Positions 4,491 to 27,828 of a stretch of DNA of 64,000 bases are shown one piece after another (position 1 is the first letter of the stretch; every line of letters begins with the position of its first letter). The stretch is from Alphaproteobacteria bacterium (GTDB taxonomy: Bacteria; Pseudomonadota; Alphaproteobacteria; TMED109): assembly GCA_965206145.1 (NCBI GenBank), contig CBDBIK010000005.1, positions 513,206 through 577,205 of the forward strand. Reading direction: 5' to 3'. The notes under the pieces were generated by a model. It was not told the DNA's origin. It saw only the letters and a list, made by a program, of their open reading frames with translations, and did not search any database. The translations under genes were made by a program, and so were the position numbers.

Positions 4491-4493
4491 CGT

Positions 4494-5146
4494 TCAGCCT
4501 TCCGGGCCCAGAAGACGCGCAAGCGCGCCCGCGAACGCCGCCGCGTCGTCCGCCCGGCGTCGAAGGTCGACTGCCGCGAAAAGACGCATCTGCCTAAGCG
4601 TCAGCCGCTCGCAGACGTCGTGATGGCCGGTTGCGTGGCCGGCGCGGACAAGTCCGTCGAGGACTTCTGCGATGCCGACAGGCTCGCCAGCATCTCCCGC
4701 CCCTGGAGAGCCCCGACGATCCTGCCCAAGATAAAATTTCGGTTTGCCGTCCACATCGCCGCCGACACGGACGTCGCGTCCGAGGCACCAAGGCGGCCGA
4801 CCCAGGCAACCTCGCGGTCGCACGCCCGGGCAATGAGCGCAAGCCATGTGTCAGCGTGCTCGGACAACACCTGGTCGATGACGTCAAGATCTTTCACCGG
4901 ACCCTCGCACCCGCCGGCAATGTCGGTCAGCGCATCAAGCAGCGGCTTCGATCGCCCCTGCAGCTCCAGCGCCTCGCGGAACCGGAACTCACGGACCGTG
5001 ATTCGTGTCATCTTCCCGGTGTCGGGATCGCGAACGTCAACGTCGACGTCCGGAAAGAGAATTGCCGCCGCCTCGTCGTCGTCCGGGGCCGGGGAGTCCG
5101 TCCCGCCGTTGGAAGCCGTCACGGTCGCGTCGCTGGTCGTCGGCAT
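4494..5146 (-). CDS. tail assembly chaperone, predicted -1 frameshift product (GT-like, about 217 aa)
   Basis: The -1 frame is open from 4847 down to a stop at 4494, just 4 nt before the tape-measure ATG. The heptamer A_AAT_TTT at 4739..4733 (minus) is correctly phased with the G frame. Confidence 0.5.
4601..5146 (-). CDS. tail assembly chaperone (G-like)
   Basis: In-frame ATG at 5146 (MPTTSDATV...) overlaps the major tail gene stop by 1 nt. Acidic protein located between the major tail gene and the tape measure. Confidence 0.7.
   Translation of the reverse strand: MPTTSDATVTASNGGTDSPAPDDDEAAAILFPDVDVDVRDPDTGKMTRITVREFRFREALELQGRSKPLLDALTDIAGGCEGPVKDLDVIDQVLSEHADTWLALIARACDREVAWVGRLGASDATSVSAAMWTANRNFILGRIVGALQGREMLASLSASQKSSTDLSAPATQPAITTSASG
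4733..4739 (-). promoter_or_regulatory. candidate -1 programmed ribosomal frameshift slippery heptamer AAATTTT
   Basis: The zero-frame codons read cgA AAT TTT atc, which is the X_XXY_YYZ pattern. The -1 frame continues KFYLGQDRRG..., matching ORF 4494..4847. Confidence 0.5.
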
Positions 5147-5964
5147 CAGCCGACAGACTCGCCGTCGATGACCAGAGCGGGCGCGCCTCCACCCGGCTCC
5201 TGGATCGCTGCAGTGAGCGGAATTTGCTGCTCGGCCGAGCGGCTCATCAACTGCATCTCGCCACTCGCAGCAAGACTGCATTTTCCTGCGTAAATGTCCC
5301 GCCCCTGCGCCCCGCGCTTCGCGCTCTCCAGGTAGCGCACCGCGACTAGTGTCGCCTGCGGGATCGTGTAGCTCTTCGCCTGCTGACGCTTTTTTGCCGC
5401 CGGCGTGTAATCGACGTAGATCGAGGAATCGTCGGCGATCCCCGTCGCATTCGGCTGGATGTAGACCCGCCCGCGAGACGCGTCCACCTCAAAGGATTCA
5501 TTGTTCGCGTTGGCGAGCGAATTTGCGTTCTTCTCCGTTGCCACGGCAACCGTGCTCTCCGTGACGGCACCGGCACCACGGGGGTTCTGGGCGGTCCGGC
5601 CAAGCTGATACCAGTGCCCGTGCTTGACCGCGATCTTCTCGTTGACGACCGCTGTGGTGTTCGCCGCCACCTCCGATGTCGTGCCGCCAACAAACAGCGC
5701 GAAGTTCTCGAGCGTCGTGTCGTGCAGCGTTAACCCCATCGTTCGGGTGATCTGCGTCAACTCATCGGCAAGCACCTGCGCCACTTCACCCGTCCCCGAG
5801 TAGATTTGTGTCCGCTCGCTCGTCACCGAAAGCGTCGCGCTGACGGCATCCCCCACGTAGCGCTCTCCAGTCGGGGCACTGTCGGCGTCGAGAACGTCGA
5901 TGAACAGTTCCCCTGAGCCCAGAACAATGTTGTTGGTGTGAATTTCAGGCGCGGTCTTCGACAT
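5146..5964 (-). CDS. major tail protein
   Basis: ATG at 5964 is preceded by GGGAGG (MSKTAPEIHTNNIVLGSGELF...). 272 aa, located immediately upstream of the chaperone pair. The upstream part of ORF 5146..6102 is an over-extension. Confidence 0.7.
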   Translation of the reverse strand: MSKTAPEIHTNNIVLGSGELFIDVLDADSAPTGERYVGDAVSATLSVTSERTQIYSGTGEVAQVLADELTQITRTMGLTLHDTTLENFALFVGGTTSEVAANTTAVVNEKIAVKHGHWYQLGRTAQNPRGAGAVTESTVAVATEKNANSLANANNESFEVDASRGRVYIQPNATGIADDSSIYVDYTPAAKKRQQAKSYTIPQATLVAVRYLESAKRGAQGRDIYAGKCSLAASGEMQLMSRSAEQQIPLTAAIQEPGGGAPALVIDGESVG

Positions 5965-6133
5965 GGCTACCTCCCTTTCTGGACGCGGACGCAGTGGACA
6001 CGAACTGCCCCTGCTCCTCGAGCCTCCGCACCTGCTCGGTGCTGAGCGTGACCTTCTCGCCCACCTCGTGCCGCTTGCCCTCCTGGACAAGCGGTTTCGC
6101 AAGCGTGCGGGTCACCAGTTTCGGTTCAGACAT
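5945..6133 (-). CDS. small hypothetical head-tail protein (62 aa)
   Basis: ORF track. GGAG lies upstream of the ATG at 6133. Short overlaps with both neighbours. Confidence 0.45.
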   Translation of the reverse strand: MSEPKLVTRTLAKPLVQEGKRHEVGEKVTLSTEQVRRLEEQGQFVSTASASRKGGSHVEDRA

Positions 6134-6575
6134 GAGCTACTCCTTCTCCCCCGGAAATCACCGTCCGGGTGCGGTACTCCTCGAGCCAGGCGACCCGACT
6201 CATTTCGATTTCCAGAAGCCGGCCGCGGACAAGACGGAACGGCTCCTCACAATCCTCCGGCGTCCACCCGAGGATCGCTCCGCGCGTGACCTCGATGGCA
6301 GCCGCGAGCTCGCCGCCGGCCTTCTCGCCGTGCGGATCGTCCGGAGCCGGAATCGACAAAGCCACGTTCGCAGTCAAGCGGACGTTCTGGATGGCTCCCG
6401 CACGACCGGCGAGGTTCTCGCCCGAATCGTCGAACGCCGGATACACGACCGCAGCCGGTTTTCCGAACTCGCGTTCCACCGCCGATGCTTCCAGGGCACC
6501 GAACACTTCGCCGAAGTAGCCCGTCTCCCGAAGACGCACGATCACACGCTCGATTACCGAGACACTGCCGGTCAT
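6126..6575 (-). CDS. head-tail joining/tail completion protein (hypothetical, 149 aa)
   Basis: In-frame ATG at 6575 (MTGSVSVIERV...) overlaps the upstream stop by 1 nt. Position is between the head-completion genes and the tail genes. Confidence 0.55.
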   Translation of the reverse strand: MTGSVSVIERVIVRLRETGYFGEVFGALEASAVEREFGKPAAVVYPAFDDSGENLAGRAGAIQNVRLTANVALSIPAPDDPHGEKAGGELAAAIEVTRGAILGWTPEDCEEPFRLVRGRLLEIEMSRVAWLEEYRTRTVISGGEGVAHV

Positions 6576-7087
6576 CACCGGCCCTCCCCGAGATGCTGGC
6601 TCACCACGCGGGCGATCATCGCCCGATCGTCCCTGGAGATGCCGAGGAACGGTCGCGCCGGGATTTCGCTTCCAGGATGCTCGACCTTCTTTACCGGATG
6701 GCGCGCACCCGGCCAGTAGAGCGCCTTGCGGCGCTTCGGCCGGATCGTCCGCGGCGGCGTCTTGCCGCCAAATTGATGAATCGCCGCGTAGACCACGTTG
6801 GTTCCGACCTCCACAGCGTCTGCCTGGAGACTGTGGGTGATCGAAGCGCGAAGCCGACCGGTGCCCGTGAGCGTCTGCCCGTTCTCGGCCTGCGCACGCC
6901 CCGACTTCGGCCACGGGGCACCGTCCGGGCCGTGCTCCAGCTCGAAGCGCCGCTCGACCGACAGCACCAGGCGACCGCCGATCTCGTCCAGGATCGGTGA
7001 GGGGTCTTCGATTTTCCCGACAAGGCGGCCAAACTGCGACCGGAACTCTTTGTCATCGAACCGGATTTCAACCCCCGCTCCAGCCAT
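6575..7087 (-). CDS. phage virion morphogenesis protein (Mu G-like / tail-S-like)
   Basis: Start at 7087 (MAGAGVEIRFDDKEF...). The stretch GTGRLRASIT...VGTNVVYAAIHQFGG...PARPFLG is typical of this family (memory-based). Confidence 0.65.
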   Translation of the reverse strand: MAGAGVEIRFDDKEFRSQFGRLVGKIEDPSPILDEIGGRLVLSVERRFELEHGPDGAPWPKSGRAQAENGQTLTGTGRLRASITHSLQADAVEVGTNVVYAAIHQFGGKTPPRTIRPKRRKALYWPGARHPVKKVEHPGSEIPARPFLGISRDDRAMIARVVSQHLGEGR

Positions 7088-7491
7088 TAGACTCCCTCCA
7101 GGTTGGTGGCGGTCATCACCGGAGCGTCCGGACATGTGCTGTCACGGACCTGGCGCACCGGGATCTCTACGCCTTGCTCGTCAAAGAGTGTCACGCTCCC
7201 GTCAACCAGGCCCTTGAGGGTTTTCCGCGCCTGGCGCGCGCGATCCCGCACGACGTCAGGCAGCTCACGGCCGTAAAGCCTCGCGCGTGCAATGTCGCAC
7301 GCAATCAGTCGCAACTGCGGATGCTCGTCACCGGCAAGCGGCAGAGCGAACGTCGAAGCGAGTTTGCCGTCGAGCTCGGCGTGCGTGTCCGCAAGCGCCG
7401 TCATCACCCGGCCGGACCTCGTATCGTCCAAACGTTGGATCTCGTCGGCCGAGAAACGAGCCTCCAAGTCCTCGCGGGTCGCATACGGCAC
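7087..7491 (-). CDS. DUF1320-like head protein (Mu gp36-like)
   Basis: 134 aa, MPYATREDLEARFSADEIQRL... is the typical DUF1320 N-terminus. Lies directly after the capsid gene. Confidence 0.65.
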   Translation of the reverse strand: MPYATREDLEARFSADEIQRLDDTRSGRVMTALADTHAELDGKLASTFALPLAGDEHPQLRLIACDIARARLYGRELPDVVRDRARQARKTLKGLVDGSVTLFDEQGVEIPVRQVRDSTCPDAPVMTATNLEGV

Positions 7492-7500
7492 CGCTAGGCC

Positions 7501-8445
7501 TCAGGCAACCGCGTTCTTGAAGTGGTATCCCGCTGCTTTCCAGGCGACGAGTTCCTTGACGCACTCCGTGACTTTGACGATCTCCGCACCGGCAACGCCA
7601 ATCGAATCGTCGTGGTAGGTCATCACCTGACGACCCATCCACTCCGCTGTGAAGCAGTAAGTGGGTTGTGCGCTCATGGCCCCGGAAACCGCAGGGTTCA
7701 GGTGGACCAGAGAGGCATGCTTACCCCATAGCCGCGTGTGGCTCGCATTCTGCCCCTTCGCCGCCGAGTTGTGGAAAGATCGTCCAATAATTATCCGGTC
7801 GAGCTCGAACAGCTCCGCCACCGCATCGCGCATCGCAAGGCCAGCAGCACCAGTGCCCGCACCCGAGCGCGCCGTAGCCTCGACGATCTTCGGGTGGCGC
7901 CGCAACGCCGTCCAAGAGGACTGCCCCAGCACCAGCGCGTTCGGCCTCAGTAACGGTTTGTCCATCGCCTCGGCGATCGATTTGATCGGGTCGCTGTTTG
8001 AATGCGACCACTGCGATGTGCCCGACAGCGTCGCTTGATGAGCTGTCTCGTAATTTCCAGCCGCAAACACCAGGTCTGCCACCCGTTTCTCGCGCGCCAG
8101 CGCCACCAGCGTCGAGGTATTCATCGTCGCCTCAGCCAGCGGATCCCAACTCGTCGAGCCGCTGCGGGCGACGTGGACGTCTTTCACCGGCACCGAGTCC
8201 TCAAGGCCGTGGTCTTCGGTCGATTCGGTCACGTGATCCGTGCCAAATTCCACCTGATTGGCTCGCGAACGGCGGCCGATCAGGGTTTCGGGAATCTTGT
8301 GAGTCTCGCCCGGGCGGCCCCGGGCGTATGTGAATTTCTCCGCGGGCACCATCACCCGCGGACACACCTCATCGGCGATCAGGCCCTCGGGTTTCACCGT
8401 CATCGCGATTTGGGTGAGGCGGGTTTCGATTGCAAAGGGGGGCAT
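7501..8445 (-). CDS. major capsid protein
   Basis: 314 aa. Position after protease/scaffold and the DUF2190 gene. Sequence resembles major capsid families of Mu-like and lambda-E-like phages (memory-based). Confidence 0.8.
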   Translation of the reverse strand: MPPFAIETRLTQIAMTVKPEGLIADEVCPRVMVPAEKFTYARGRPGETHKIPETLIGRRSRANQVEFGTDHVTESTEDHGLEDSVPVKDVHVARSGSTSWDPLAEATMNTSTLVALAREKRVADLVFAAGNYETAHQATLSGTSQWSHSNSDPIKSIAEAMDKPLLRPNALVLGQSSWTALRRHPKIVEATARSGAGTGAAGLAMRDAVAELFELDRIIIGRSFHNSAAKGQNASHTRLWGKHASLVHLNPAVSGAMSAQPTYCFTAEWMGRQVMTYHDDSIGVAGAEIVKVTECVKELVAWKAAGYHFKNAVA

Positions 8446-8463
8446 GTGCTTGTTCTCCTAGCT

Positions 8464-8826
8464 CTAGTAGCGCAGCGGTCGGACGTGAGCGCTGCCAATG
8501 TCGCCGGTCACACCGGCTCGATCGGCAACGCCAACGCACCAGTCGTTGGCCGTCGTTGTTGAAACGGCCTTGCCGTCGGCGGTCGCCTTCAAGCAGTCGC
8601 CGGCCGCGACAGTGCCGCCGTACTCGATCTCGGCGATGCCCTCGCGGTGCACGTCGAGACGGGCGTCGTCGGCAGCATCGATCGCGTGCGAGACCCCGAT
8701 TGGCGGCTTCGTCGCGTCCGAGGCCTCCTTTGCTTGGCCGGCCTTGGCACCGTGGATCACGATCCGGTGCGCCTTTACGGCACCGTCCGCAACGTGATTA
8801 GTGATCAGTGTGTCGTGTCGTGGCAT
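8464..8826 (-). CDS. DUF2190-like head decoration/cement protein
   Basis: 120 aa, located between the scaffold/protease gene and the capsid gene. Gly/Ala-rich beta-type sequence typical of DUF2190. Confidence 0.65.
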   Translation of the reverse strand: MPRHDTLITNHVADGAVKAHRIVIHGAKAGQAKEASDATKPPIGVSHAIDAADDARLDVHREGIAEIEYGGTVAAGDCLKATADGKAVSTTTANDWCVGVADRAGVTGDIGSAHVRPLRY

Positions 8827-10095
8827 CTAAGCCTCCCTCGTGTTGGTGTCGGCATTGGCGCGAACAGCATCGACCGCGGCGGCATACGTCACCGTCTCGT
8901 CGCGCTCGCGCGCCGTCTTCATGTAGGCCCGGGCCCGCGCAGCAACCCGCTCGTTAGCCAAGCGGTCGTCGGCAAGGGCACCGTCTTCGGACGGTGTGCG
9001 GGCAGGGTTCGAACGTTCGGCGTAGTCGACCCGCTTGTTGAGGCCGCCAACAAACTCGAGGAACCACTCACGCGGCGATGTTTCGATCCGGCCAGCGTCG
9101 GCCCCCGCGAACGAGAGCGTCGTCGCTCCGTCCCCGTCGCCGAGCGAGGTCAGGAACGCTACCGCCCCCGCCTTCTCACGCGGCAGAAGTCGCCCGTCCG
9201 AGATAGCTTTCTCGATCTCGGCTTCCGCCGCCGCGGTGCGCTCGCGCTCCGCGAACGCGGTCTCCTTCTCTGCGAGTCCCTTCTCGCGGGCGTCCAGTTC
9301 AGCCGTCCGCTCCTTGAGCGCGGCACTGGACGGTGAATCTTCCCGGCCTCCGGCCGGAGTCTTGTCGTCTTCGGGCATTTCTGCCTCCTTGTTGGTGTCG
9401 GTGATGTTATTGGTGTCGGTAGCCGGCGCTGCAGGTCCCCCCTCCGGGAGGTCAACGCGCTCGGAAAAATTGGTCGTCGCGTCGCCGGACACGTCGTCGT
9501 GGCCGTCCTCGCGGGCGGATGGTTCAATGCCCTCCAGTTGCCATGCGGGCACGATCCTGTCGGCCGTCTCCAGATCGTTGCTGTCGATGATCCACTCGCG
9601 CACGCTGCGCAACACCGCAGCAATCCGCCGGATCCCGTCCCGGAGGACGCCCTCGCTGGAGGCGAACTCGTAAGTCGCAAATGATGCAGGCGCCGCGAAC
9701 CGCGTCGGCGCCAGGCCGCTTACAGCCGGTGCCGCACCGCCCAGGAAGCCGATATGCCGCAGCGAGAAAGTGCCGTCCTGGCCCTTGAGTAGCGCCACCG
9801 AACGGCCGGCGTATCGACCCTCCTCGACCGCCTCGCGGAACGCCGGCGCAATGTCACGAAGTCGCGCCTGGAGGCGGTCGCCGACGCGTCGAATTCGATC
9901 GACCCAGCCGTAGGCCGGTGCGTCGTCCTCGGGGTGCCCGACGACAACCGGGACCGGATCCTGATCAGCGTAGTTGGAGACGATCCCGTCGAGAGTCGCC
10001 GCGTCAAAACTGTTTTTGGAGCCGCGCATGTCGGTGTGGGTGCCCGCTCGGAACACATCGAACCACCCATCAAGTGCGCTGAACTTCGCAGGCAT
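8827..10095 (-). CDS. head maturation protease / scaffold protein (Mu I-like)
   Basis: 422 aa. The N-terminal domain (FDVFRAGTHTDMRG...VVVGHPEDDAPAYGWV) resembles Mu I/GPO-type proteins. The middle is acidic and the C-terminal half is helical. First gene of the minus-strand late arm. Confidence 0.7.
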   Translation of the reverse strand: MPAKFSALDGWFDVFRAGTHTDMRGSKNSFDAATLDGIVSNYADQDPVPVVVGHPEDDAPAYGWVDRIRRVGDRLQARLRDIAPAFREAVEEGRYAGRSVALLKGQDGTFSLRHIGFLGGAAPAVSGLAPTRFAAPASFATYEFASSEGVLRDGIRRIAAVLRSVREWIIDSNDLETADRIVPAWQLEGIEPSAREDGHDDVSGDATTNFSERVDLPEGGPAAPATDTNNITDTNKEAEMPEDDKTPAGGREDSPSSAALKERTAELDAREKGLAEKETAFAERERTAAAEAEIEKAISDGRLLPREKAGAVAFLTSLGDGDGATTLSFAGADAGRIETSPREWFLEFVGGLNKRVDYAERSNPARTPSEDGALADDRLANERVAARARAYMKTARERDETVTYAAAVDAVRANADTNTREA

Positions 10096-10100
10096 CGATC

Positions 10101-10121
10101 CGCCTCCGATGGTCGGAGGCG
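10101..10121 (-). promoter_or_regulatory. perfect 9-bp hairpin that sequesters the Shine-Dalgarno of the protease/scaffold gene
   Basis: The mRNA reads CGCCUCCGA-CCA-UCGGAGGCG followed by GAUCG-AUG. The GGAGG sits in the 3' arm and pairs with CCUCC in the 5' arm. Confidence 0.5.
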
Positions 10122-10150
10122 AATCGTGAGAGAGAACTAAGTGGACGTAA

Positions 10151-10167
10151 AGGTGACAGGTGTCACA
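10151..10167 (-). promoter_or_regulatory. 17-bp late-operon motif TGTGACACCTGTCACCT (copy 1), putative activator site/late promoter element
   Basis: Identical 17-mer, in the same orientation relative to the downstream genes as the copy at 20466..20482. Contains the dyad GTGACA-N2-TGTCAC. There are 55 nt between the motif and the protease/scaffold ATG. Confidence 0.5.
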
Positions 10168-10447
10168 GGAAGAACAAGCCCGATCGAACAGCCTGACGGG
10201 GTGGAAACGTCTGCGATTTCAGTTCATTCAGACCAGCGTTTCACGTTGCTCTCCCGGAACCAGAAGAAGCGAGAACCAGTCATCGTTGTAGAAGCAAGGA
10301 GAGCAACAAGTAGTCAATCCCGGAGTCCGAACCCCGACCGCATGGAGGAACCCTCAACCAGCATGTGGAGGATTTGAACGCGCTTATCTAGGGGCAATCC
10401 GTCCATACCTCTATGTGAAATTATTTGCTTACCTTCAAGAAAAATGT

Positions 10448-12439: not shown

Positions 12440-13183
12440 TCAGCCCAGAGTCTTCGCCATCCACACAACCTCGCCAATCACGTCGGCGTCGCGAGGCCAC
12501 GGTAGGTCCTTCCACGCCGGATGGTCGCTAACGAGCAGCCAGGACTTGCCATCCTTTCGTGCCCTCTTGACTATCAGTCCGTCTTCCGTGCGCACCACGA
12601 AGATGTGCTTGTCCCGACGCCGGTTGCGATGCTTCGCGACGAGAATCGAGCACTTGTCCGGAAGCGTCGGCTCCATCGACTCGCCGCGCACTCGGATGAC
12701 CACGCATTCCGACGCGATCAGCGCGTGCAGGTTGAGCCAGGCGCGCCGGAACGCGAGGCGCCCTCGGACTGGAGCGTCCTCAATGTGAGAGCCCCCGCCG
12801 GCGGAAGGCTCCACCTCCAGCATCTCAATGTAGCGTTTGCTCGGATCCTCCTCACCGCTCCCGTCAACCGGCGCCACCATGGATTTGGTCGCTGCCAATG
12901 CCTGCCCATGGAGGCGATCGAGTTCAGCTCGCACCTCGCTAAGCCGGTCGTTTAGCGCGGCTCCGGGTTCCTCGCGGGGGGGACCAACGTAAAGTTCGAG
13001 CCCTAATGCATCGCAGATCTCAGCTGTCCGTACGAGTGAGGGAATATGCCCCTCTAGCGCACTTTGAACGCTACGAGTGGGAAGCTTGCTCCGAATCGCC
13101 AATGCACGCACGGATAGCCCTTGCCTATCTAACGCGGCGCGGGCCGTGGTTACGAATTTCTGATAGGCATTCACAGTAGGCAA
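12440..13183 (-). CDS. CI/LexA-like prophage repressor (HTH + S24 peptidase domain)
   Basis: N-terminal HTH (LSVRALAIRSKLPTRSVQSALEG). C-terminal S24 signature VRGESMEPTLPDKCSILV...LIVKR. Divergent from the early operon. TTG (13183) or GTG (13174) start. Confidence 0.85.
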   Translation of the reverse strand: MPTVNAYQKFVTTARAALDRQGLSVRALAIRSKLPTRSVQSALEGHIPSLVRTAEICDALGLELYVGPPREEPGAALNDRLSEVRAELDRLHGQALAATKSMVAPVDGSGEEDPSKRYIEMLEVEPSAGGGSHIEDAPVRGRLAFRRAWLNLHALIASECVVIRVRGESMEPTLPDKCSILVAKHRNRRRDKHIFVVRTEDGLIVKRARKDGKSWLLVSDHPAWKDLPWPRDADVIGEVVWMAKTLG

Positions 13184-13567: not shown

Positions 13568-13879
13568 ATGACCACTACCGGGAAGATGCATGCGGTGGCA
13601 GATCCAGCAGCGTCCTCACCCGACCGGGATGCGTGGATCGCGCGGGGCAAACGTCTTTCCGAATCCGGCTCGGAGCGGCAGTGGGAGTTTGCTGACTGGG
13701 CGTTTGAGGGGATGGGGGCATTCGGATCGGAGACGGTCCGGGAGATCGCCTCCCGTCTTGGAATATCCCCTGGATTTTTGAGCACATGTACTGCCATATC
13801 AAGAGCTTACCCTTTGTTTCGCCGGCGAAACACCCTTGGATTTTCACAGACGAAGCTCCGCCGGTGGCCCGCGCGATGA
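13568..13879 (+). CDS. HTH protein, truncated paralogue of the 14160..14864 gene (possibly decaying)
   Basis: WEFADWA...ETVREIASRLGISPGFLSTCTAISRAY..RRR.TLGFS aligns with WELGDLA...SLRETARRIGMSPEKLIRFSSTAKAF..RRRFTLAIS of the downstream gene. Stops 16 codons after the palindrome-encoded RRR motif. Confidence 0.5.
   Translation: MTTTGKMHAVADPAASSPDRDAWIARGKRLSESGSERQWEFADWAFEGMGAFGSETVREIASRLGISPGFLSTCTAISRAYPLFRRRNTLGFSQTKLRRWPAR
13815..13832. repeat. palindrome TGTTTCGCCGGCGAAACA (variant member of the early-region palindrome family)
   Basis: Read directly. Encodes the FRRRN segment of the 13568 gene. Followed by CCCTTGGATTTTC, similar to the flanks of the other copies. Confidence 0.7.
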
Positions 13880-13912
13880 GCGCGGGCTCCCGCCGTGTTG
13901 TCGTCATCGACG

Positions 13913-13957
13913 GGTCCGGAGGTGAATCGCCGGCGATTCACCCCCTGGAAATCCGGA
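13913..13957. repeat. about 45-bp direct repeat, copy A, containing the perfect 22-bp palindrome GGTGAATCGCCGGCGATTCACC (13921-13942)
   Basis: Read directly. Matches 14111..14155 with about 4 mismatches. Lies 17 nt upstream of the tRNA-like gene. Confidence 0.85.
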
Positions 13958-13974
13958 GAGTTCTTTCTCCGATC

Positions 13975-14053
13975 GCCCAGGTAGCTCAGCTGGTAGAGCA
14001 CGCGGGCTCATGCGCCTGCGGTGTCGGCGGTTCGATCCCGCCCCTGGGCACCA
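13975..14053 (+). tRNA. tRNA-like gene with CAU in the anticodon loop and a non-canonical (3 nt too long) anticodon arm
   Basis: Hand fold. Acceptor GCCCAGG/CCTGGGC is perfect. U8 is present. D arm GCTC-AGCTGGTA-GAGC. T arm GGCGG-TTCGATC-CCGCC. Discriminator A and an encoded CCA. The anticodon arm CGCGGGC-TCATGC-GCCTGCG is 20 nt instead of 17. Confidence 0.55.
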
Positions 14054-14110
14054 TCCCGCCGCCGCCGGACTCTCTCGGAAAATCTGTCTCCTTGACCAAC
14101 GTTGTCAGTG

Positions 14111-14155
14111 GGTCAGAGGGTGAATCGCCGGCGATTCACCCCCTGGAAATTCGGA
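14111..14155. repeat. about 45-bp direct repeat, copy B, containing the 22-bp palindrome (14119-14140)
   Basis: Read directly. Lies 57 nt downstream of the tRNA-like gene and ends 5 nt before the start of the 14160 gene. Confidence 0.85.
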
Positions 14156-14159
14156 CCGC

Positions 14160-14864
14160 GTGAGCGTCCCCGCCCGCATTCTACGGGGCAGCCTGCTGGA
14201 TAAGCGGCTGGAGCGCTGCCGGCAGCTTGTCGGGTCGCGCCAGGCGGCTGCGTGGGAACTGGGCGACCTTGCCAACACCATTGCTGAGGAGGACGGCGTA
14301 TCGCTCCGGGAGACTGCCCGCCGGATCGGGATGTCCCCCGAGAAATTAATCCGGTTTTCAAGCACGGCCAAAGCTTTTGAGGTGAATCGCCGGCGATTCA
14401 CCCTTGCCATTTCGGTACATGCGGAGGTGCGCGGCCTGCCGGCATCAGAGGCCGACGTCTTCCTCGACCGGATCGAGGCGGGTGAGTTGTCCCGCTCGGA
14501 GCTGCGCGCTGCCGTCCAGGAGAGGACGACCCGGGGCCGCATCCAGGAGCTTGAGCGCGAATGCGCAGAGCTACGTCAGCGGGTATCGAGGGTGCCGGCA
14601 TCACCGGAGGAGGCGTCCGACATGGCGGCGGCGGCGCATTCCCGGGTCCGTTCGGCCTGCAAGCTCGTCCATCGCTCGTACCGCGACGCGGCGCGGATTG
14701 CCGCCGAGGTCGTGGGGAATACCGCTCTCATGGGAGCCCTTCACGGCAACCGGCGCAACGCCCTGCGCATGGCGCTGGAGCGCGAGTTCGATGGTGCTGC
14801 TGTTCGTCTTGAGGAGACGAGGCGGGAAATGCTCGCACCGCTGTTCGACGGGCCCGACCGGTGA
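14160..14864 (+). CDS. early HTH DNA-binding protein with coiled-coil C-terminus (ParB/KorB-like HTH...LxxSxHxE pattern)
   Basis: 234 aa. Contains GVSLRETARRIGMSPEKLIRF...RRRFTLAISVHAEV. GTGA overlap with the transposase start. Lies directly upstream of the transposase. Confidence 0.65.
   Translation: MSVPARILRGSLLDKRLERCRQLVGSRQAAAWELGDLANTIAEEDGVSLRETARRIGMSPEKLIRFSSTAKAFEVNRRRFTLAISVHAEVRGLPASEADVFLDRIEAGELSRSELRAAVQERTTRGRIQELERECAELRQRVSRVPASPEEASDMAAAAHSRVRSACKLVHRSYRDAARIAAEVVGNTALMGALHGNRRNALRMALEREFDGAAVRLEETRREMLAPLFDGPDR
14381..14402. repeat. 22-bp perfect palindrome GGTGAATCGCCGGCGATTCACC, copy C (inside the 14160 gene, encoding VNRRRFT)
   Basis: Read directly. Confidence 0.85.
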
Positions 14865-16723
14865 GGTCGTTGGCCTCGCTCCGGCCGGTCCTTGCAAGGT
14901 CGATGCAGGACATCTGCAATGGCCCTGCACCGGCTGTGCAGGAGCCTTGCGCGGCCCCGCAGGAGCTCCCCCAGGCATCGGCCTGGGAGAGTGCAACGGA
15001 CGCGGGCCGTGCCCGTGCCTACACCCGCCTGGACGCGGTCGCCCGTAGCGACGCACTCGTGACCGAAGGGCTACCTCGCAGTGCCGCCGATGTACAGGCG
15101 GCGCGCGAGCGCGGCGTGTCACGCTCGGCTCTCGCAGGCTGGCGCGGCCGCATCCGGGGTGTCGCCGTCGGCGAGCGCCTTGCCGCACTCCTCGACCGTC
15201 CAGGGCGGGGCCGTCCGCGGAAGAACGAGTGGGCAGGGCTGGGAGCCGATGAGCTCTGGCGCCACTGGTCCAGCGACTATCTCCGTGAGGAGGCTCCCGA
15301 CGCGGCGGCGGTGCACCGGCGGCTCATGCTAATCGCGAGTGAGCGCGGCTGGGGCTGTCCCTCGCTGCGGGCGTTCACGCGGAGGACGGAGCGCGAAATA
15401 CCGAAGGCGGAGCGGGTGCGTGCGCGCCAAGGCGCGGTCGCGGCTCTTGATCTTCATCCTTACCAAACCCGCACGGTCGCGGGCCTGAAGCCGCTTGAAA
15501 TCGTCAACGGTGATGGTCGGCGCCATGACGTCATCGTGCGCTTTCCCACCGGTCGTCAGGGGCGTCCCGTTGTCTGGATGTGGCAAGACATCCGCACCCG
15601 CCGAATTCTTTCCTGGAGGATCGGAGAGACAGAGTCGTCCGATCTCGTTCGAACTGCACTCCACGAGCTGATCGTGGCGCATGGCGTTCCCGAGCGACTT
15701 GTGGTCGACCAGACGCTGGCGGCGTCGTCGAAATTTCTCACCGGCGGCATGTCGGGGCGCAAAAGATGGCGTTCGACGGGCGAGGAGTTACTGGGGATCC
15801 TCGCGCTGCTGGAGATACAGTACAGCCCGACGGCGGTGGATACGGACGCAGGCGGCCGAGGGAAAGGCCGGGGACGTTCCAAACCCGTCGAACGTGCCTT
15901 TGGCGACCTCGCGCGGCAGGTTGACACGCACCCGCTGTTGGTTGGTGCTTACACCGGCCGCTCGACCCAGGACCGGCCTGAGACGCACCGCACCAACGTC
16001 GTCGCCCTCGAGACTTTCGCGACGGTGCTCACGGCGGCGGTTGCCGAACACAATGCCCGCCCGGGCCGGCGGACCGAAGCTGCGGCGGGACGCAGCTTCG
16101 ACCAGGTCTGGGCCGAGGAGATCAAGGGCGCGGCCGTGCGCCGCATGACGCAGGCGCAGGCGTCGGTACTGCTACTCGCCGCCGAGGACGTGACGGTCAA
16201 CGCGGACGGCACATTCACACTTCGGTGCGGGCGTGGGGCGCGGATGCCAGTCAACCGCTACCACTCGCCCGCATTGGTCGAGCGGGCGGGCCAGAGCCTG
16301 GTTGCCCGCTTCGACCCGGGCGAGCTCCACGGCGCTGTCTACCTCCACGTCCGGGACGGCCGCTACATCGGCCGCGCGGAGTGCGTGCTCCCCGTTGGAT
16401 TCGCCGACGCTGGCACCGCTCGCCGGCACGAGGCGGCGCGCCGGGATCTCCGCCGCGCCGCCGAGCGTGGCCTTCGGGCGAGGCGCGACCTGGAGGAGCT
16501 CGCCCGGGCGCACCGGGACCTGCCGTCTCCGCCTGCGCCGAACGATCCTGCTTCAGGTGTTGTCCGCTTGGTCGCAAACGGTTCCCTTCCTCAGTTGCCG
16601 TCGCCAAATCCGGGATCGGATCCGGTGACGTCCGCCGCCACCAAGACGGCCCCGTCCCGTCCGCGGCGAGGAGTCGCGGCGGCTCTTCGCATCATTCAAT
16701 CCCAGAAGGACTCTGATTTATGA
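14861..16723 (+). CDS. Mu-type DDE transposase (MuA-like)
   Basis: 620 aa. Integrase-core-like region (EIVNGDGRRHDVIV..., VVDQTLAASSKF..., SKPVERAFGDL). C-terminal Mu-transposase-like region. Followed by a MuB-like gene with an ATGA overlap. Confidence 0.85.
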   Translation: MRSLASLRPVLARSMQDICNGPAPAVQEPCAAPQELPQASAWESATDAGRARAYTRLDAVARSDALVTEGLPRSAADVQAARERGVSRSALAGWRGRIRGVAVGERLAALLDRPGRGRPRKNEWAGLGADELWRHWSSDYLREEAPDAAAVHRRLMLIASERGWGCPSLRAFTRRTEREIPKAERVRARQGAVAALDLHPYQTRTVAGLKPLEIVNGDGRRHDVIVRFPTGRQGRPVVWMWQDIRTRRILSWRIGETESSDLVRTALHELIVAHGVPERLVVDQTLAASSKFLTGGMSGRKRWRSTGEELLGILALLEIQYSPTAVDTDAGGRGKGRGRSKPVERAFGDLARQVDTHPLLVGAYTGRSTQDRPETHRTNVVALETFATVLTAAVAEHNARPGRRTEAAAGRSFDQVWAEEIKGAAVRRMTQAQASVLLLAAEDVTVNADGTFTLRCGRGARMPVNRYHSPALVERAGQSLVARFDPGELHGAVYLHVRDGRYIGRAECVLPVGFADAGTARRHEAARRDLRRAAERGLRARRDLEELARAHRDLPSPPAPNDPASGVVRLVANGSLPQLPSPNPGSDPVTSAATKTAPSRPRRGVAAALRIIQSQKDSDL

Positions 16724-17724
16724 GCACTCAGAATCAATTCGATCATCAGGACGACGGTGGCAACATCGTCGCCCTGCCCGGCACCGGGCGGATCTCTCAA
16801 GCTTCGCTCGTCGCGGACTGCCGCGACGAGATGGAGGCTGCGGGACTGTCGATTCAGCAGGCAGCGCGGGAGATCGGTCGCGGTGTGAGCAGTGCCACCC
16901 TCTCCAAATGGCTCCGCGACAGATATGAGGGCGATGTGGGAGCGGTCTCGAAGCGCATCGAGACGTGGATCGAGACGCGGCGCGAGCGCGCTCGCCGGGC
17001 GATCGGCGGCGCGGGTCTCGACCGCCATGCATCCCTTCAAGTCACGGCCGACATCGAGGCCGTCCTCGGTCACGCTCAAGCCGCCGCCGACGTCGTCCTG
17101 GTTCACGGCCGGAGTGGTGCCGGTAAGAGCTGGGCGAGCCGTCGCTACTGCGGATCTCGCACCGCTGCCCACTTTGTCGTCGCGACGGGGGCGGTGACGA
17201 CGCTCTCCGGTCTTCTTGGCCGGGTCGCCGACGCGGTCGGTGGAGGCGCACGTCACGTCTCAGCCCTGGCGGCCGAGAGCGTGGCGGTCGCCCGCCTCAG
17301 GGACCGCGGTGCCCTCCTCGCAGTCGACGAGGCGCATCACCTGTCCGCTCGCCTCTTGGACGAGCTCCGTTGCATCCGTGACATGGCGGGATGCGGCCTC
17401 GCCCTGATTGGCGGCGACGAGTTGTGGACGCGGTTGGCATCCTCGCCGCATTGCGACCAGATCGTCGGGCGAATTGGGATTCGCCTACCGGTGGGCAGGG
17501 TCTCGGAGACCGACGTCCGAGAGCTAGGCGGGGCGGTCCTGGGCCGCGAGACCGCGGCACGAGAGACGCGCCTCCTACTCGCTTCGGCGCAGGCCGCCGG
17601 TGGGCTGCACGCGCTGCGCCGACTCCTTGTACGTGCGTGGATTCATGCCAAGGCAGAGGGTCGCGCCACCACCGTCCAGGCAGAAGACCTGACGGCGGCC
17701 GCCGAGGAAGGAGGCGCGCCATGA
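16720..17724 (+). CDS. MuB-like AAA+ ATPase (DNA transposition protein B)
   Basis: N-terminal HTH (LSIQQAAREIGRGVSSATLSKWL). Walker A is VHGRSGAGKS and Walker B-like is LLAVDEAHHL. Confidence 0.8.
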   Translation: MSTQNQFDHQDDGGNIVALPGTGRISQASLVADCRDEMEAAGLSIQQAAREIGRGVSSATLSKWLRDRYEGDVGAVSKRIETWIETRRERARRAIGGAGLDRHASLQVTADIEAVLGHAQAAADVVLVHGRSGAGKSWASRRYCGSRTAAHFVVATGAVTTLSGLLGRVADAVGGGARHVSALAAESVAVARLRDRGALLAVDEAHHLSARLLDELRCIRDMAGCGLALIGGDELWTRLASSPHCDQIVGRIGIRLPVGRVSETDVRELGGAVLGRETAARETRLLLASAQAAGGLHALRRLLVRAWIHAKAEGRATTVQAEDLTAAAEEGGAP

Positions 17725-20465: not shown

Positions 20466-20482
20466 TGTGACACCTGTCACCT
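20466..20482 (+). promoter_or_regulatory. 17-bp late-operon motif TGTGACACCTGTCACCT (copy 2)
   Basis: Identical to the reverse complement of 10151..10167. Begins 4 nt after the Mor-like stop, with 34 nt between the motif and the ATG at 20517. Confidence 0.5.
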
Positions 20483-20516
20483 GTTCTTGCGCGCGCGGTC
20501 GCGGCACCATCAGCTC

Positions 20517-20948
20517 ATGTCCCGTGCTGATCTCATCCGTGATGTTTCTTCCGACCACGGCACGCTCGGCGTGCTGCTGGTGGATGGCGAACCGCTTGCC
20601 CACACCATGGAGCCGCCCTGGCGCGACAACGCGCGGGGCCGGTCCTGCATCCCCGCCGGCGAGTACCGAACAGTCTGGCACCGGAGCCCCCGCTACGGCG
20701 AGTGCTATCTGGTTACCGACGTGCCGGGTCGCAGTCACATCCTCATTCATTCCGGCAACGTCGGCGGCGACCCCGACCAGGGACTACACACCCATACGCA
20801 GGGCTGCGTTCTTCTTGGGCGCAGGCGCGGCGAGCTCGCGGTCCGCGATCGCCGCCAGCGCGCGGTCCTGGTGTCGCGGCCGACGTTGCGGGCTTTTACC
20901 GCGGCGATGGCAGGCGAGACCTTCAACCTTGCGGTGCAAGCCCCATGA
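20517..20948 (+). CDS. DUF5675-like protein; candidate cell-wall hydrolase (YkuD-like His...Gly-Cys motif)
   Basis: Internal ATG (MSRADLIRDVSSDHGTLGVLLVDGEPLAHTMEPPWRDN...SCIPAGEY...ILIHSGN...THTQGCVLLG). First gene of the plus-strand late arm, followed by membrane proteins. Confidence 0.55.
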   Translation: MSRADLIRDVSSDHGTLGVLLVDGEPLAHTMEPPWRDNARGRSCIPAGEYRTVWHRSPRYGECYLVTDVPGRSHILIHSGNVGGDPDQGLHTHTQGCVLLGRRRGELAVRDRRQRAVLVSRPTLRAFTAAMAGETFNLAVQAP

Positions 20949-21012
20949 AACGGCCTTGCAAGTGCCCCGAACGGGGTCTGCAACGGGTCGGAGGAAACTG
21001 ACAATCGAATCC

Positions 21013-21555
21013 GTGTTTGACATCCTCCAGTTGGTTCTCGGTGGCGGCGCGACCGGTATCCTCGGTACTCTGATCTCGCGCGGCGTTGGCCTCTTCCAGA
21101 AACGCCAAGACCTCACGCACGAACTGGCGTTGCGCGAGCTCGATCTCAGGCACATTGCCGCCGAGGCCGAGGTTGGTGCGACGCTCCGGGCACACGAGCT
21201 TGAGAGCGATCGCATCGAGGCGGCGGCCCGCGAGCGCACCGCCGAGCACGACGCACTGCTCACATCGATCAAGGCTGACCGGGCGGCTTATGCGACACAT
21301 GGCCTCACCCCTGCCCAGAACTGGCTGATGGTGATCGTTGACTTCGTCCGCGGCCTCATGCGGCCCGCGCTCACCGTTGCCCTCGTCGCTCTTGCCTGGA
21401 CGATCGTCGTGCGGACTCCGACGGGGAGCGATCCGGGTGCCGCCGGCATGGTCATCCTCTACCTCGCCATCTCCTGCGTCACGTGGTGGTTCTGCGACCG
21501 GGCTGCGGCGAAAATGGCGCAGGCGTTCCTGCCGGGCTCGAAGGGCACCGCGTGA
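21013..21555 (+). CDS. holin-like membrane protein (start uncertain)
   Basis: Part of ORF 20467..21555. Hydrophobic segments are ILQLVLGGGATGILGTLI, WLMVIVDFVRGLMRPALTVALVALAWTIVV and MVILYLAISCVTWWF. GTG at 21013 is the first plausible start. Confidence 0.4.
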   Translation: MFDILQLVLGGGATGILGTLISRGVGLFQKRQDLTHELALRELDLRHIAAEAEVGATLRAHELESDRIEAAARERTAEHDALLTSIKADRAAYATHGLTPAQNWLMVIVDFVRGLMRPALTVALVALAWTIVVRTPTGSDPGAAGMVILYLAISCVTWWFCDRAAAKMAQAFLPGSKGTA

Positions 21556-21857
21556 ACGCCGAAGTCTTCGTCGAGTGGGTGGCCCGGGCGGTTGTCGTTG
21601 CCACGGTCGGTGCTGTGACAACGCTCTTTGTGCGTCTGCGCAGGGTTGAGGCAGAGAATGCCGTCATCGAGGAGACGGTCCGCCAGATCGCGGGAAGCAA
21701 CGTCGGAGAGGAACTCCACAAACTGCGTCTGTGCATCGCCGAGAGCTACGTAAGGCGCGACGACTACGTCCAGCAACTCTCGCTGATCCAGTCGAAGCTG
21801 GACTCGCTTGGAACCCTCGTCGCCCGCGTCGACGAGAGGACCAGGAACGGAGGCTAA
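21552..21857 (+). CDS. membrane-anchored coiled-coil protein (possible lysis accessory/spanin-like)
   Basis: GTG at 21552 forms a GTGA overlap. N-terminal TM segment (FVEWVARAVVVATVGAVTTLFV) followed by a helical region. Confidence 0.45.
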   Translation: MNAEVFVEWVARAVVVATVGAVTTLFVRLRRVEAENAVIEETVRQIAGSNVGEELHKLRLCIAESYVRRDDYVQQLSLIQSKLDSLGTLVARVDERTRNGG

Positions 21858-21860
21858 AGC

Positions 21861-22193
21861 ATGAACGAGACAGCCGAGAGGATGGAGCACACTCGCCTCG
21901 AGAGCGGACGTTGGGAGATGCTCCGTGTGATGCATGTTGCTGGCCATCTTGGCGCCACCGAAACCATGATGCTTTCCACGCTTCGCGCGATGTGGATGCA
22001 GACCACACGGGAGTGGATCCGCGACCAGCTTGCCTACCTCGAGGACCGCAAACTCGTGAAGGTCGAGCGTCACGAGATCAAGGAATGGTGCTCCACCCTG
22101 ACCCGACACGGTGTGGACGTCGCCACCTACACCGTCGACTGCGAGCCGGGAATCTCCCGCCCGCGGAAGTACTGGGGCAGCGCGGCCTCCTGA
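21861..22193 (+). CDS. hypothetical protein (110 aa)
   Basis: ORF track. Tightly packed between the lysis genes and the terminase genes. Confidence 0.45.
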   Translation: MNETAERMEHTRLESGRWEMLRVMHVAGHLGATETMMLSTLRAMWMQTTREWIRDQLAYLEDRKLVKVERHEIKEWCSTLTRHGVDVATYTVDCEPGISRPRKYWGSAAS

Positions 22194-22194
22194 C

Positions 22195-22731
22195 ATGCCG
22201 GCGCGGTCCAAGGTCTCGACCCTGCCAGACGACGTGCGCGCGGAACTCGATCGCCGCCTCGTAGAGGGCGGCTTCGGCGGTTACGTCGAACTTTCGGAAT
22301 GGCTTGCCGGTCGGGGTTGCCACGTTTCCAAATCGTCGCTCCAGCGCCACGGTGCCACCCTGGAGCGACGCATAGAACAGACCAGGATCGCGACAGAGAG
22401 TGCGCGCACCCTGGTCGAGGCGGTGCCCGACGACGCGGGCGCAATGTCGCTCGCTACGCTTCGTATGGCGCAGCAAAGGATCTTTGATCTCCTGCTTGCC
22501 GCCGAGGACGGCAGTCTCCAGGACGTCTCCCGCGCCGCACGCGCTGTGGCCGAGCTGGGCCGCGCCACGGGGAGCGTCCAGCGGGACCGCCGCGCGATCC
22601 TCGCTGAGGCTGCCGATCGGGCCGAATCTGCCGCGCTCGCCGAGAGCGAGAAGGCCGGACGGAAACTCTCACCGGCTTCACTTCGGACAATCAGAGAACA
22701 GGTCTACGGGATCGTGGGCGAGGCCGCATGA
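22195..22731 (+). CDS. small terminase subunit (DUF3486 / Mu gp27-like)
   Basis: ATG at 22195 (MPARSKVSTLPDDVRAELDRRLVEGGFGGYVELSEWLAGRGCHVSKSSLQRHG) is the typical DUF3486 N-terminus. ATGA overlap with the large terminase. Confidence 0.65.
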   Translation: MPARSKVSTLPDDVRAELDRRLVEGGFGGYVELSEWLAGRGCHVSKSSLQRHGATLERRIEQTRIATESARTLVEAVPDDAGAMSLATLRMAQQRIFDLLLAAEDGSLQDVSRAARAVAELGRATGSVQRDRRAILAEAADRAESAALAESEKAGRKLSPASLRTIREQVYGIVGEAA

Positions 22732-24113
22732 GCCCTGCCGTCACGCTCCTGCCCTACCAGCAACGCTGGTTCCAGGACCGTTCGCGCTTCAAGCTCGGGC
22801 GCTGGAGCCGCCAGACCGGCAAGACCTTCACCACCACCCTTGAGATCGTTGACGACGTCCACGAGGCGATGACGCAGGGCCGGCGGGCGCGATGGATCAT
22901 TCTCTCCCGCGGCGAGCGCCAGGCGAAAGAGGCGATGCAAGGCGCCCTCATCCCCCACGCCAAGGCATACGGAGCCGCGATTCGCGAGATCGAGGGTGAG
23001 TTCGCAACCGCCGAGGGCACCACCTTCCGCGCTGTCGAGGTCGAGTTCGAGAACGGATCGCGCGTCTCCGCGTTGCCCGCCAACCCCGACACTGCGCGCG
23101 GCTTCTCTGCAAACGTCTTTCTCGATGAGTTCGCCTGGCATCAGGACGCACGGGCGATTTGGGCCGCTCTTTTCCCCGCCGTCTCCGCCGGTCATCGCCT
23201 CGTTGTTGCCTCCACGCCGCGCGGCAAGGGCAACCGGTTCTACGAGCTCGCCACTGACAGGTCCGGCCGATGGTCGGTTCATCTCGTCACCATTCACGAT
23301 GCCGTTCGCGACGGGCTTGCGCGCGATGTCGCAGAGCTCCGTGACGCGCTTGGCGACGACCAGCTGTGGCGTCAGGAATACGAGTGCGAGTGGCTCGACG
23401 AAGCCAGCGCCTGGCTCTCCTTCGATCTGATCGATGGCTGCGAGCACGACGACGCAGGCCGGCCCGAGAGCTTCCAGGGCGGATCCGTCTACATCGGCAA
23501 CGACATCGCCCGCCGCCATGACCTGTGGGTCGCCTGGGTCATCGAGATCGTGGGCGATGTCGCCTGGACGCGCGAGATCGCGACGCTTCGCGGCGCGACA
23601 TTCGCCCAGCAGGACGCCGAGCTCGACCGTCTGATCGAGAACTACAACCCGGTTCGCGTCGCCATGGACCAGACCGGCATGGGCGAGAAGCCCGTCGAGG
23701 ACGCGCAACACCGCCACGGCAGCATGATCGAGGGCGTCATCTTCACGGGGCCCCGCAGGCTCGCACTCGCTACCGCGCTGCGCGAACGCCTCGAGGATCG
23801 CACGATCCGCATCCCCGCCGGCGATCGTCGGCTCCGCGATGACCTCCACGCCGTCGGCAAGACGGTTGGTCCCACCGGAGCACCGCGGCTCATTGGCGGC
23901 CGTTCCGGCGACAGCCACGCTGATCGCTTCTGGGCGGCGGCCCTCGCCGCCGGTGCCGCTGCCGATGGCCTGCCTGCCTTCGAAGCGACCGTCACCGCCC
24001 GCCGCAGCGCATGGGACGCCGAGCTTCCCATGCCCGGAACACCCCTCCACGCGATTGACCACCGGAACGGGATCGTTCGAAGCGCATTTGCCAACGGGCT
24101 CGGGAGAAGCTGA
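22728..24113 (+). CDS. large terminase subunit (Mu gp28-like)
   Basis: 461 aa. LLPYQQRWFQDRSRFKLGRWSRQTGKTF (Walker A-like) and a nuclease half further downstream. Position is before the portal. Confidence 0.85.
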   Translation: MSPAVTLLPYQQRWFQDRSRFKLGRWSRQTGKTFTTTLEIVDDVHEAMTQGRRARWIILSRGERQAKEAMQGALIPHAKAYGAAIREIEGEFATAEGTTFRAVEVEFENGSRVSALPANPDTARGFSANVFLDEFAWHQDARAIWAALFPAVSAGHRLVVASTPRGKGNRFYELATDRSGRWSVHLVTIHDAVRDGLARDVAELRDALGDDQLWRQEYECEWLDEASAWLSFDLIDGCEHDDAGRPESFQGGSVYIGNDIARRHDLWVAWVIEIVGDVAWTREIATLRGATFAQQDAELDRLIENYNPVRVAMDQTGMGEKPVEDAQHRHGSMIEGVIFTGPRRLALATALRERLEDRTIRIPAGDRRLRDDLHAVGKTVGPTGAPRLIGGRSGDSHADRFWAAALAAGAAADGLPAFEATVTARRSAWDAELPMPGTPLHAIDHRNGIVRSAFANGLGRS

Positions 24114-25606: not shown

Positions 25607-25744
25607 ACGGATTCGCCGCCTTGGGAAGTTTCCGGAGATTCCCGCCGTTCGGTCGGGTCGGCACGGCGATCCGCGTCGTCGTCACGAAGGGACCGGCCAT
25701 TCCCGACAGGGACCGCGACGGAGAACGCTCCAGCGCAGGCTTCG

Positions 25745-27669: not shown

Positions 27670-27828
27670 ATGGTGATGAGCGCGGCGATTTTTGTCGTCG
27701 CAGTCGCGATGCTCGTGCCGGTTTTCGGCAATCACGGGCTGTGGGGGGCGTACCTGCTGTTCATGGTCGCCAGAGCGGCGACTCTCGGGGCTGCCTATCC
27801 CGCACTCGAGCGGGCTTTGGGGAGGTAG
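27670..27828 (+). pseudogene. C-terminal remnant of a MATE-family efflux transporter gene (interrupted by the prophage)
   Basis: Manual translation gives MVMSAAIFVVAVAMLVPVFGNHGLWGAYLLFMVARAATLGAAYPALERALGR*, which resembles the last TM helices of MATE/DinF-type proteins. There is no N-terminal part on this side. Confidence 0.5.

Follow-up and report, generated by a model that had tools for sequence, protein, structure and literature searches.

Palindromes in the arginine codons of a Mu-like prophage early gene as candidate DNA sites of its own ParB-fold product

The early operon of a Mu-like prophage, located in a 64,000-nucleotide stretch of an alphaproteobacterial genome (GenBank assembly GCA_965206145.1, contig CBDBIK010000005.1, positions 513,206 to 577,205; hereafter the window), carries perfect DNA palindromes in and around a gene for a helix-turn-helix (HTH) protein of 234 amino acids. 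The analysis indicates, with a probability that we put at about 60%, that these palindromes are the cognate duplex-DNA sites of this early protein, which would bind them as a dimer. Specifically, the notion of a binding site embedded in its binder's own gene, one of two readings offered by a preliminary description of the sequence, is favoured by the predicted fold of the protein, by the presence of the dyad throughout the protein family, by a dyad length in excess of what codon choice would produce, and by co-variation between a residue of the DNA-reading helix and a base of the site. The features on which this argument rests are the following (positions are those of the window):

13921, 14119 and 14381 (starts): perfect 22-bp palindrome GGTGAATCGCCGGCGATTCACC, three copies, with 0 expected in shuffles
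14381..14402: the intragenic copy of the 22-bp palindrome, encoding V-N-R-R-R-F-T directly after the recognition helix of the 14160-14864 product
13815..13832: perfect 18-bp palindrome TGTTTCGCCGGCGAAACA, encoding L-F-R-R-R-N-T of a truncated paralogue at the family-wide codon position
14160..14864, + strand: early gene for the 234-aa protein, with a ParB-fold HTH domain (about residues 25-110) and a long helical C-terminal domain
13912..13957, + strand: direct repeat 1, holding the extragenic 22-bp palindrome at 13921-13942
14110..14155, + strand: direct repeat 2, holding the extragenic 22-bp palindrome at 14119-14140

Coordinates and counts of the palindromes in the preliminary description, three copies of 22 bp and one 18-bp variant, were reproduced; the variant TGTTTCGCCGGCGAAACA occurs once in the window, which holds no additional half-sites. 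The direct repeats, put at about 45 bp in that description, span 46 nt at 91% identity and bracket a tRNA gene. The intragenic copy (14372-14417) matches these repeats at 70%, with a similarity that reaches past the dyad into the coding sequence 3' of it, and the 3' flanks are related among all four palindromes of the window. From start to start, the 22-bp copies are spaced by 198 bp (13921 to 14119) and 262 bp (14119 to 14381), and the extragenic copy at 14119-14140 ends 19 nt ahead of the GTG start codon of the 14160 gene. Translated in frame, the extragenic copies read G-E-S-P-A-I-H. An open reading frame (ORF) at 13786-14163 had been set aside earlier as an artefact, and rightly so, because the frame runs straight across the tRNA and both repeats, reading GESPAIHPLEI twice.

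The 14160-14864 product is predicted to have a ParB/Spo0J-type DNA-binding fold. Its AlphaFold2 model (predicted local distance difference test, pLDDT, 94) combines a helical N-terminal domain with long helices in the C-terminal part, and the best Foldseek matches of this model in the PDB are the DNA-binding domains of Spo0J (bound to parS), ParB, Noc, KorB and SopB. These matches (4umk, 1vz0, 6t1f, 6s6h, 6y93 and 1r71) reach template modelling scores (target) of 0.5-0.68 with a root-mean-square deviation of 2-3 Å over about 110 residues, at E-values that are weak (0.02-0.5), and they bear out the ParB/KorB-like HTH that had been proposed from the letters alone; viral Foldseek matches include DUF3102 and ParB-like proteins. 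At the level of sequence, neither Pfam nor PHROG nor the PDB offers a match to the 234-aa protein. An N-terminal ParB/Srx CTP-binding domain likewise gave no Pfam match, the model having only two helices ahead of the HTH, and no ParA partner was present among the early-region ORFs scanned.

Relatives of the protein are numerous and distant. An exhaustive HMMER search yielded 312 of them, with the common motif YP-x-F-RRR-N-x-L-x-FSHHxEVAxLP; as for close relatives, a word-index protein search returned only the protein itself, and neither the viral-contig collection nor a tblastn search of the 'phages' collection gave a match. The Pfam model of DUF3102 (PF11300) reached its cut-off in 0/25 members of the family (best E 0.025, in one member), and a DUF3102 search of 201 genomes of the class gave no match anywhere, the controls likewise remaining without a match. 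In the Mu-like branch, the family gene is in every case flanked by a Ner-like gene on one side and by MuA-MuB on the other. In two distant homologues (L035:3833-5014 and L048:3926-4903), the HTH domain is N-terminal to a phage DNA methyltransferase (N6_N4_Mtase, MT-A70), and both retain 22-24 bp palindromes at the RRR codons.

The palindrome at the arginine codons is a property of the family as a whole. DNA of the relatives was taken from genomes, viral contigs and metagenomes, and 23 distinct contexts with an RRR loop were counted; in 20 of these 23 homologues, the DNA encoding x-RRR-x is a perfect palindrome of 14-24 bp, and two of the remaining three (L028 and L031) have the same type of dyad with a single mismatch. 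Across the family, the centre of the dyad falls between bases 1 and 2 of the middle Arg codon, as exemplified by GAGTTCCGCCGGCGGAACTC, GCGTTTCGCCGGCGAAACGC, TGTGCGCCGGCGCACA, ATTGTCCCGCCGGCGGGACAAT, GAACTTCACGGCGCCGTGAAGTTC and ATTTTCACGACGTCGTGAAAAT. Relatives without RRR (RRH, RRV, NRHP) have no palindrome, and of the other CGN-CGN-CGN sites in the same loci no more than 2.4% carry one of at least 14 bp, a figure that still counts family sites on the opposite strand. Three CGN codons yield an 8-bp core fairly easily, whereas a longer dyad requires matching wobble bases and complementary neighbour codons. Resampling of synonymous codons by local codon usage gives an expected mean palindrome of about 3-4 bp, and for the lengths observed at 28 sites the combined p is 5e-23. 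A dyad so much longer than codon choice gives is thus selected at the nucleic-acid level and dictates part of the protein sequence. In turn, since the palindrome arms vary between phages, the flanking residues are forced into complementary codon pairs: only F..N, L..K, S..D/E, V..T, T..V and N..F/L occur around RRR, and the usual F..N of the family is inverted to N..F in the phage of the window. The dyad is retained among relatives that are only about 30% identical and have many different arms. The preliminary description had also likened the 18-bp variant to a parS-type site; this holds for the arms of that 18-mer, but arms differ widely across the family.

Most relatives have the intragenic copy only, and no tRNA. 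One locus (L024) has a second copy of its palindrome (3953-3968), located 251 bp ahead of the RRR copy within the part of the same gene that codes for the N-terminus; translated, this copy gives V-S-P-A-K, in the same frame as the G-E-S-P-A-I-H of the extragenic copies in the window. The two-site layout of that locus (about 251 bp) is parallel to the 262-bp spacing found here.

Further information on the likely reader of the site comes from the recognition helix, where a residue near the helix start co-varies with the dyad. Specifically, helices of the type ...L-R-N go with S-RRR-D, and those with A, M, T, Q and other residues go with S-RRR-E; the base at position 8, counted from the centre, is a G in both half-sites of S-RRR-D, owing to the GAC codon, and a T in those of S-RRR-E. 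Among 44 representatives, R/K occurs with D in 20 and other residues with E in 23, leaving one case of another residue with D and 0 of R/K with E. On a maximum-likelihood tree the states are interspersed, with about 13 joint switches, at least three of them on well-supported branches, and no discordance among the sampled pairs. At the DNA level, G at position -8 goes with helix Arg and T with non-Arg at 12/12 loci. The choice between D and E may track the helix because of an Arg-guanine contact, which would explain the coupling, and the co-variation is the best, if indirect, evidence for the gene's own product reading the dyad.

The character of the dyad itself points to double-stranded DNA. 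All 185 pairs in the 20 distinct dyads are Watson-Crick (185/185), the first break is a G-T pair in 2/20, no more than chance, and the dyad symmetry continues across the centre, so that a duplex site for a symmetric dimer fits better than an RNA hairpin.

In the window, the array of sites is linked to three further elements:

13867..13887, + strand: GC-rich hairpin with an 8-bp stem and a loop GATGA that contains the stop codon of the paralogue, as read from the sequence
13975..14053, + strand: chimeric tRNA of 79 nt, called by ARAGORN as 'tRNA-??? (catg)', with CCA encoded
13568..13879, + strand: truncated paralogue of 103 aa, with 31% identity to the 234-aa protein over 83 aa (BLASTP, E 3e-8)

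The source genome (2.18 Mb, 59% G+C) holds four sibling Mu-like prophages, on contigs C2, C5, C6 and C9, and their comparison shows where the palindrome occurs and how the locus varies. A genome-wide search for the 22-mer had been set beforehand as a check on whether it is phage-specific or a dispersed host repeat of the REP (repetitive extragenic palindromic) type. Allowing up to 2 mismatches, it is found 14 times, only within the four prophage copies and each time in the same context, and it is absent from 60 related genomes. Although a GC-rich, multi-copy palindrome is what a REP-like element would look like, the confinement of 14/14 genomic copies to the same position in four prophages refutes that explanation, whose probability is practically nil.

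An alignment of the four copies shows a common block with the hairpin at 13867-13887 as its left edge, followed by the cassette, the HTH gene, A and B; upstream of the hairpin, C5 and C6 have the truncated paralogue and C2 and C9 have unrelated sequence. The cassette variation for which a comparison of related prophages had been suggested does exist: tandem 198-bp units of palindrome plus tRNA number two in C2 and C6 and one in C5 and C9, a difference attributable to amplification or loss of the unit by unequal recombination between the repeats. As a result, a segment of about 0.5-0.7 kb of the early operon, directly ahead of the transposase genes, contains 3-4 palindrome sites. When six cassette copies are aligned, 1/44 columns vary in the palindromes and 3/79 in the tRNA, compared with 16/97 in the spacers (p = 0.02 for the palindromes and p = 0.007 for the tRNA). 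The resemblance of the extragenic repeats to coding sequence 3' of the intragenic dyad suggests that the extragenic copies are most likely duplicates of that intragenic segment.

The four prophages lie at about 538-563 kb of C2, 506-541 kb of C5 (window -7180 to about 27700), 217-234 kb of C6 and 1-31.5 kb of C9, and contig breaks are located within them. They are 99% identical over most genes, with mosaic immunity regions and differing C-terminal ends of MuF.

The tRNA-like gene of 79 nt noted between the repeats is recognized as such both by ARAGORN and by the Rfam tRNA model, with a score of 49 bits (gathering score 29) and 10 nt at the place where the model has a 7-nt loop. Outside the anticodon arm, it is about 95% identical to the host tRNA-Phe(GAA), and its acceptor, D and T arms as well as the nucleotides of the tertiary pairs are canonical. 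The anticodon arm, CGCGGG-CUCAUGC(G/A)-CCUGCG, is 3 nt too long (20 nt versus the usual 17) and folds into a 6-bp stem with an 8-nt loop or, in the G variant, into 7 bp with 6 nt; a canonical 5-bp anticodon stem with a 7-nt loop is not present. The 5' half of this arm, CGGGCUCAU, is identical to the arm of the host initiator tRNA (genome C1:7286-7362), so that an initiator-like half arm sits on a tRNA-Phe body and the tRNA is a chimera. Its three variable columns among the six copies, namely a loop base, T-loop position 60 and a change from G-C to G-U, are all compatible with the structure. The tRNA is absent at every related locus, its anticodon-arm pattern and 20-mer have no match in the viral-contig collection, and in the 60 related genomes only their own tRNA-Phe was found.

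Two ideas about this tRNA were rejected. Capture together with host flanks is contradicted by the homology to the host tRNA-Phe, which ends exactly at G1 and at CCA+T, and quadruplet decoding of CAUG finds no use in the window, where CATG sites that join long frames are ordinary gene junctions or fall in frames whose base composition is not coding-like; a CATG near the start of the paralogue opens into a non-coding-like frame of 63 aa. A promoter and terminator scan of the + strand gave nothing useful. Possible roles of the tRNA include that of a CAU decoder charged by methionyl-tRNA synthetase, of a tRNA resistant to anticodon nucleases, or of a processing mark in the operon transcript.

The relationship between the truncated paralogue and the HTH gene, including the placement of their palindromes at equivalent codons, was confirmed by the alignment, in which FRRRN stands opposite NRRRF. 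The paralogue retains the N-terminal helices, the HTH and the RRR loop and is without the SHHxEV helix and the coiled coil. Among the four prophages it is found in C5 and C6 only, its two copies differ by 10 synonymous and 9 non-synonymous codons, and its end coincides exactly with the mosaic-boundary hairpin. These differences and the position of its end fit a leftover, complete with a variant site of its own, of an exchange of modules among heteroimmune sibling phages, and not a designed second regulator.

Around the array, the early region has the following genes, in addition to the Ner-like gene:

12440-13183, - strand: S24 repressor (Pfam)
14861..16723, + strand: MuA-type transposase without domain I-alpha (Pfam DDE_2, HTH_Tnp_Mu_2, Mu-transpos_C)
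16720-17724: MuB-like ATPase (AAA; Pfam), with Gam and GemA farther downstream

The stop codon of the HTH gene overlaps the start of MuA. This MuA aligns with Mu A only from Mu residue 94 (its own residue 40) and has no Pfam match to HTH_Tnp_Mu_1, which together indicate that it is without the I-alpha enhancer-binding domain. The structural genes form two arms, one on either side of the central immunity and early region and each pointing away from it, a layout that is unlike that of Mu and identical in the four copies: the left arm (window 1-10171, - strand) holds protease, head and tail genes, and the right arm (20466-27700, + strand) lysis, terminase, portal and MuF genes.

Several explanations compete with a dimer site of the HTH protein. 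The palindromes might function as RNA hairpins of the early transcript, which would protect or mark the ends of the tRNA precursor and stabilise the 5' end of the HTH-A-B mRNA, with the tRNA serving as a processing 'punctuation'. The extragenic copies do flank the tRNA, one of them finishes 19 nt before a start codon, the tRNA is conserved, and with no separate promoter or terminator found it must be excised from the operon transcript. However, the intragenic copies of the family have Watson-Crick pairs throughout and no surplus of G-U, they keep a symmetry across the centre that a hairpin loop does not need, their arms co-vary with a residue of the DNA-reading helix, and most relatives have the palindrome without a tRNA, all of which makes the RNA account unlikely. 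Improbable to a similar degree is that the sites are DNA sites read by another protein, be it the MuA that lacks I-alpha, the Ner-like protein, a methyltransferase or restriction enzyme, or a host factor. While the constant neighbourhood of MuA and MuB in the Mu-like branch, the fusion of distant homologues to DNA methyltransferases and the restriction-like cores of the palindromes (CGCCGGCG, GGCGCC, GTCGAC, GACGTC) would suit such a reader, the dyad is retained in non-Mu contexts without a transposase, its arms change between phages in step with the HTH of the same gene, and its core is mostly fixed by the three CGN Arg codons.

The other reading of the preliminary description, in which the palindrome is a recombination hot spot, has merit as history, given the duplicated segment, the change in cassette number between 1 and 2, and the paralogue at a mosaic boundary; as an account of function it did not stand. 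In its strong form, the palindromes would be functionless quasi-palindromes that perpetuate themselves by template switching and act as the hot spots behind gene duplication, cassette capture and changes in copy number. One or two cassettes in siblings, the mosaic junction and truncated paralogue beside the repeats, and the resemblance of the extragenic repeats to the intragenic segment outside the dyad are all in keeping with this, but a dyad that persists at about 30% identity with many arms, that is lost exactly where RRR is lost and that is linked to a helix residue renders it unlikely as well.

Some points nevertheless weigh against the palindromes being dimer sites of the HTH protein. 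Perfect short palindromes can stay perfect through template-switch repair without selection, and the extragenic copies, which lie on either side of the tRNA, could instead be functional as RNA hairpins. The tree behind the helix-site co-variation is poorly resolved, with only 3 well-supported co-switches, and an intramolecular Arg-Asp coupling may be an alternative source of that co-variation. Additionally, since no ParB CTPase domain and no ParA were seen, spreading or partition in the manner of ParB is unlikely, and since most homologous phages are single-site, they tell little about the array in the window.

If the palindromes are indeed sites of the ParB-fold protein, a model can be proposed in which the intragenic copy is ancestral and represents the site common to the family. 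A site inside the gene of its binder would allow gene and site to travel as one module and to change specificity together. In the lineage of the window, the site would have been copied out of the gene, with one copy before the start codon and one ahead of each 198-bp cassette, and the number of cassettes would change by unequal recombination between the repeats. The bound protein would form a nucleoprotein complex on the palindrome stretch of the early operon, and this complex might gate early transcription into A and B, as a roadblock or by autoregulation, or might act architecturally for a MuA that has no enhancer-binding domain of its own. A more far-reaching version, which we consider doubtful, holds that the ParB-fold domain and the dyad in its own codons constitute a portable, self-addressed module that brings its own landing site wherever the gene goes. 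Were this true, the module would be a phage-specific, separately encoded transposition enhancer or licensing element for a MuA without I-alpha, the same domain would tether DNA methyltransferases in other phages, the site array would also control the chimeric tRNA, and the tRNA would be a working early product, for instance an anticodon-nuclease-proof or recoding tRNA.

The locus offers a testable case of a binding site that lies within the codons of the domain proposed to read it, where selection on the dyad visibly dictates the residues that flank the Arg-Arg-Arg loop. It also suggests a concrete and testable activity for a conserved unannotated early gene beside a Mu-type transposase. Because the Mu-type transposases here are without the enhancer-binding domain, the array gives a hint as to where the missing enhancer function might be sought, and the relevance extends to phage DNA methyltransferases, which are headed by the same domain. 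In turn, the sites arranged around the chimeric tRNA present a natural system in which to investigate how phages regulate or process embedded tRNAs.

Among known systems, the closest parallels are ParB/Spo0J with parS, Noc with its binding sites (NBS) and KorB with its operators (OB), which share with the locus a DNA-binding fold, a dyad of similar size and a site in or beside the gene of the binder. In Bacillus subtilis, a parS is located within spo0J. The outer arms of parS equal the arms TGTTTC/GAAACA of the 18-bp site in the paralogue, with half-sites that are 2 bp farther apart here. The ParB systems differ from the phage protein, which is without the N-terminal ParB/Srx CTPase domain and has no ParA among the ORFs scanned; the phage site is built on three Arg codons at a fixed position of the domain and is different in nearly every phage, and it belongs to an early transposition operon and not to a partition locus. 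A likeness to the internal activation sequence (enhancer) of Mu lies in a putative protein-bound element in the early region near A, and here the MuA is without I-alpha. In Mu, the enhancer coincides with the operator region, and MuA reads it directly through domain I-alpha, while a role of the present palindromes in transpososome assembly is only proposed.

A related arrangement is found in BcepMu (NC_005882; L069), where gp10 contains a perfect 30-bp palindrome (TTCAAAAGCGGCGTTAACGCCGCTTTTGAA, 7035-7064) right after the HTH. Like the gene described here, gp10 is an HTH gene immediately upstream of the transposase with a palindrome right after its HTH, and DUF3102 proteins match the present protein in structure; by sequence, a relationship to the gp10 type is not significant (hhalign probability 0.4%). 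The phages of the BcepMu/B3 type differ in that the phage of the window has a true MuA-type transposase, a dyad encoded by RRR, extragenic copies and a tRNA cassette. The tRNA, in turn, resembles +1 suppressor tRNAs (sufD, SufB2, SufJ) and the yeast mitochondrial tRNA-Thr1, which has an anticodon loop of 8 nt (PMC3113583), in that an 8-nt loop (CUCAUGCR) can be drawn and the other arms are canonical. It differs from the +1 suppressors by a stem that is one pair longer and by an initiator-like (CAU) loop on a Phe body, and no split gene that depends on CAUG was found in the window.

A published description of a self-carried site encoded by RRR was not found in the searchable literature. New here, taken together, are such a site in a second, MuA- and methyltransferase-associated family, the visible imprint of a DNA site on a protein sequence and, in the lineage of the window, a site that has multiplied around a cassette with a chimeric tRNA.

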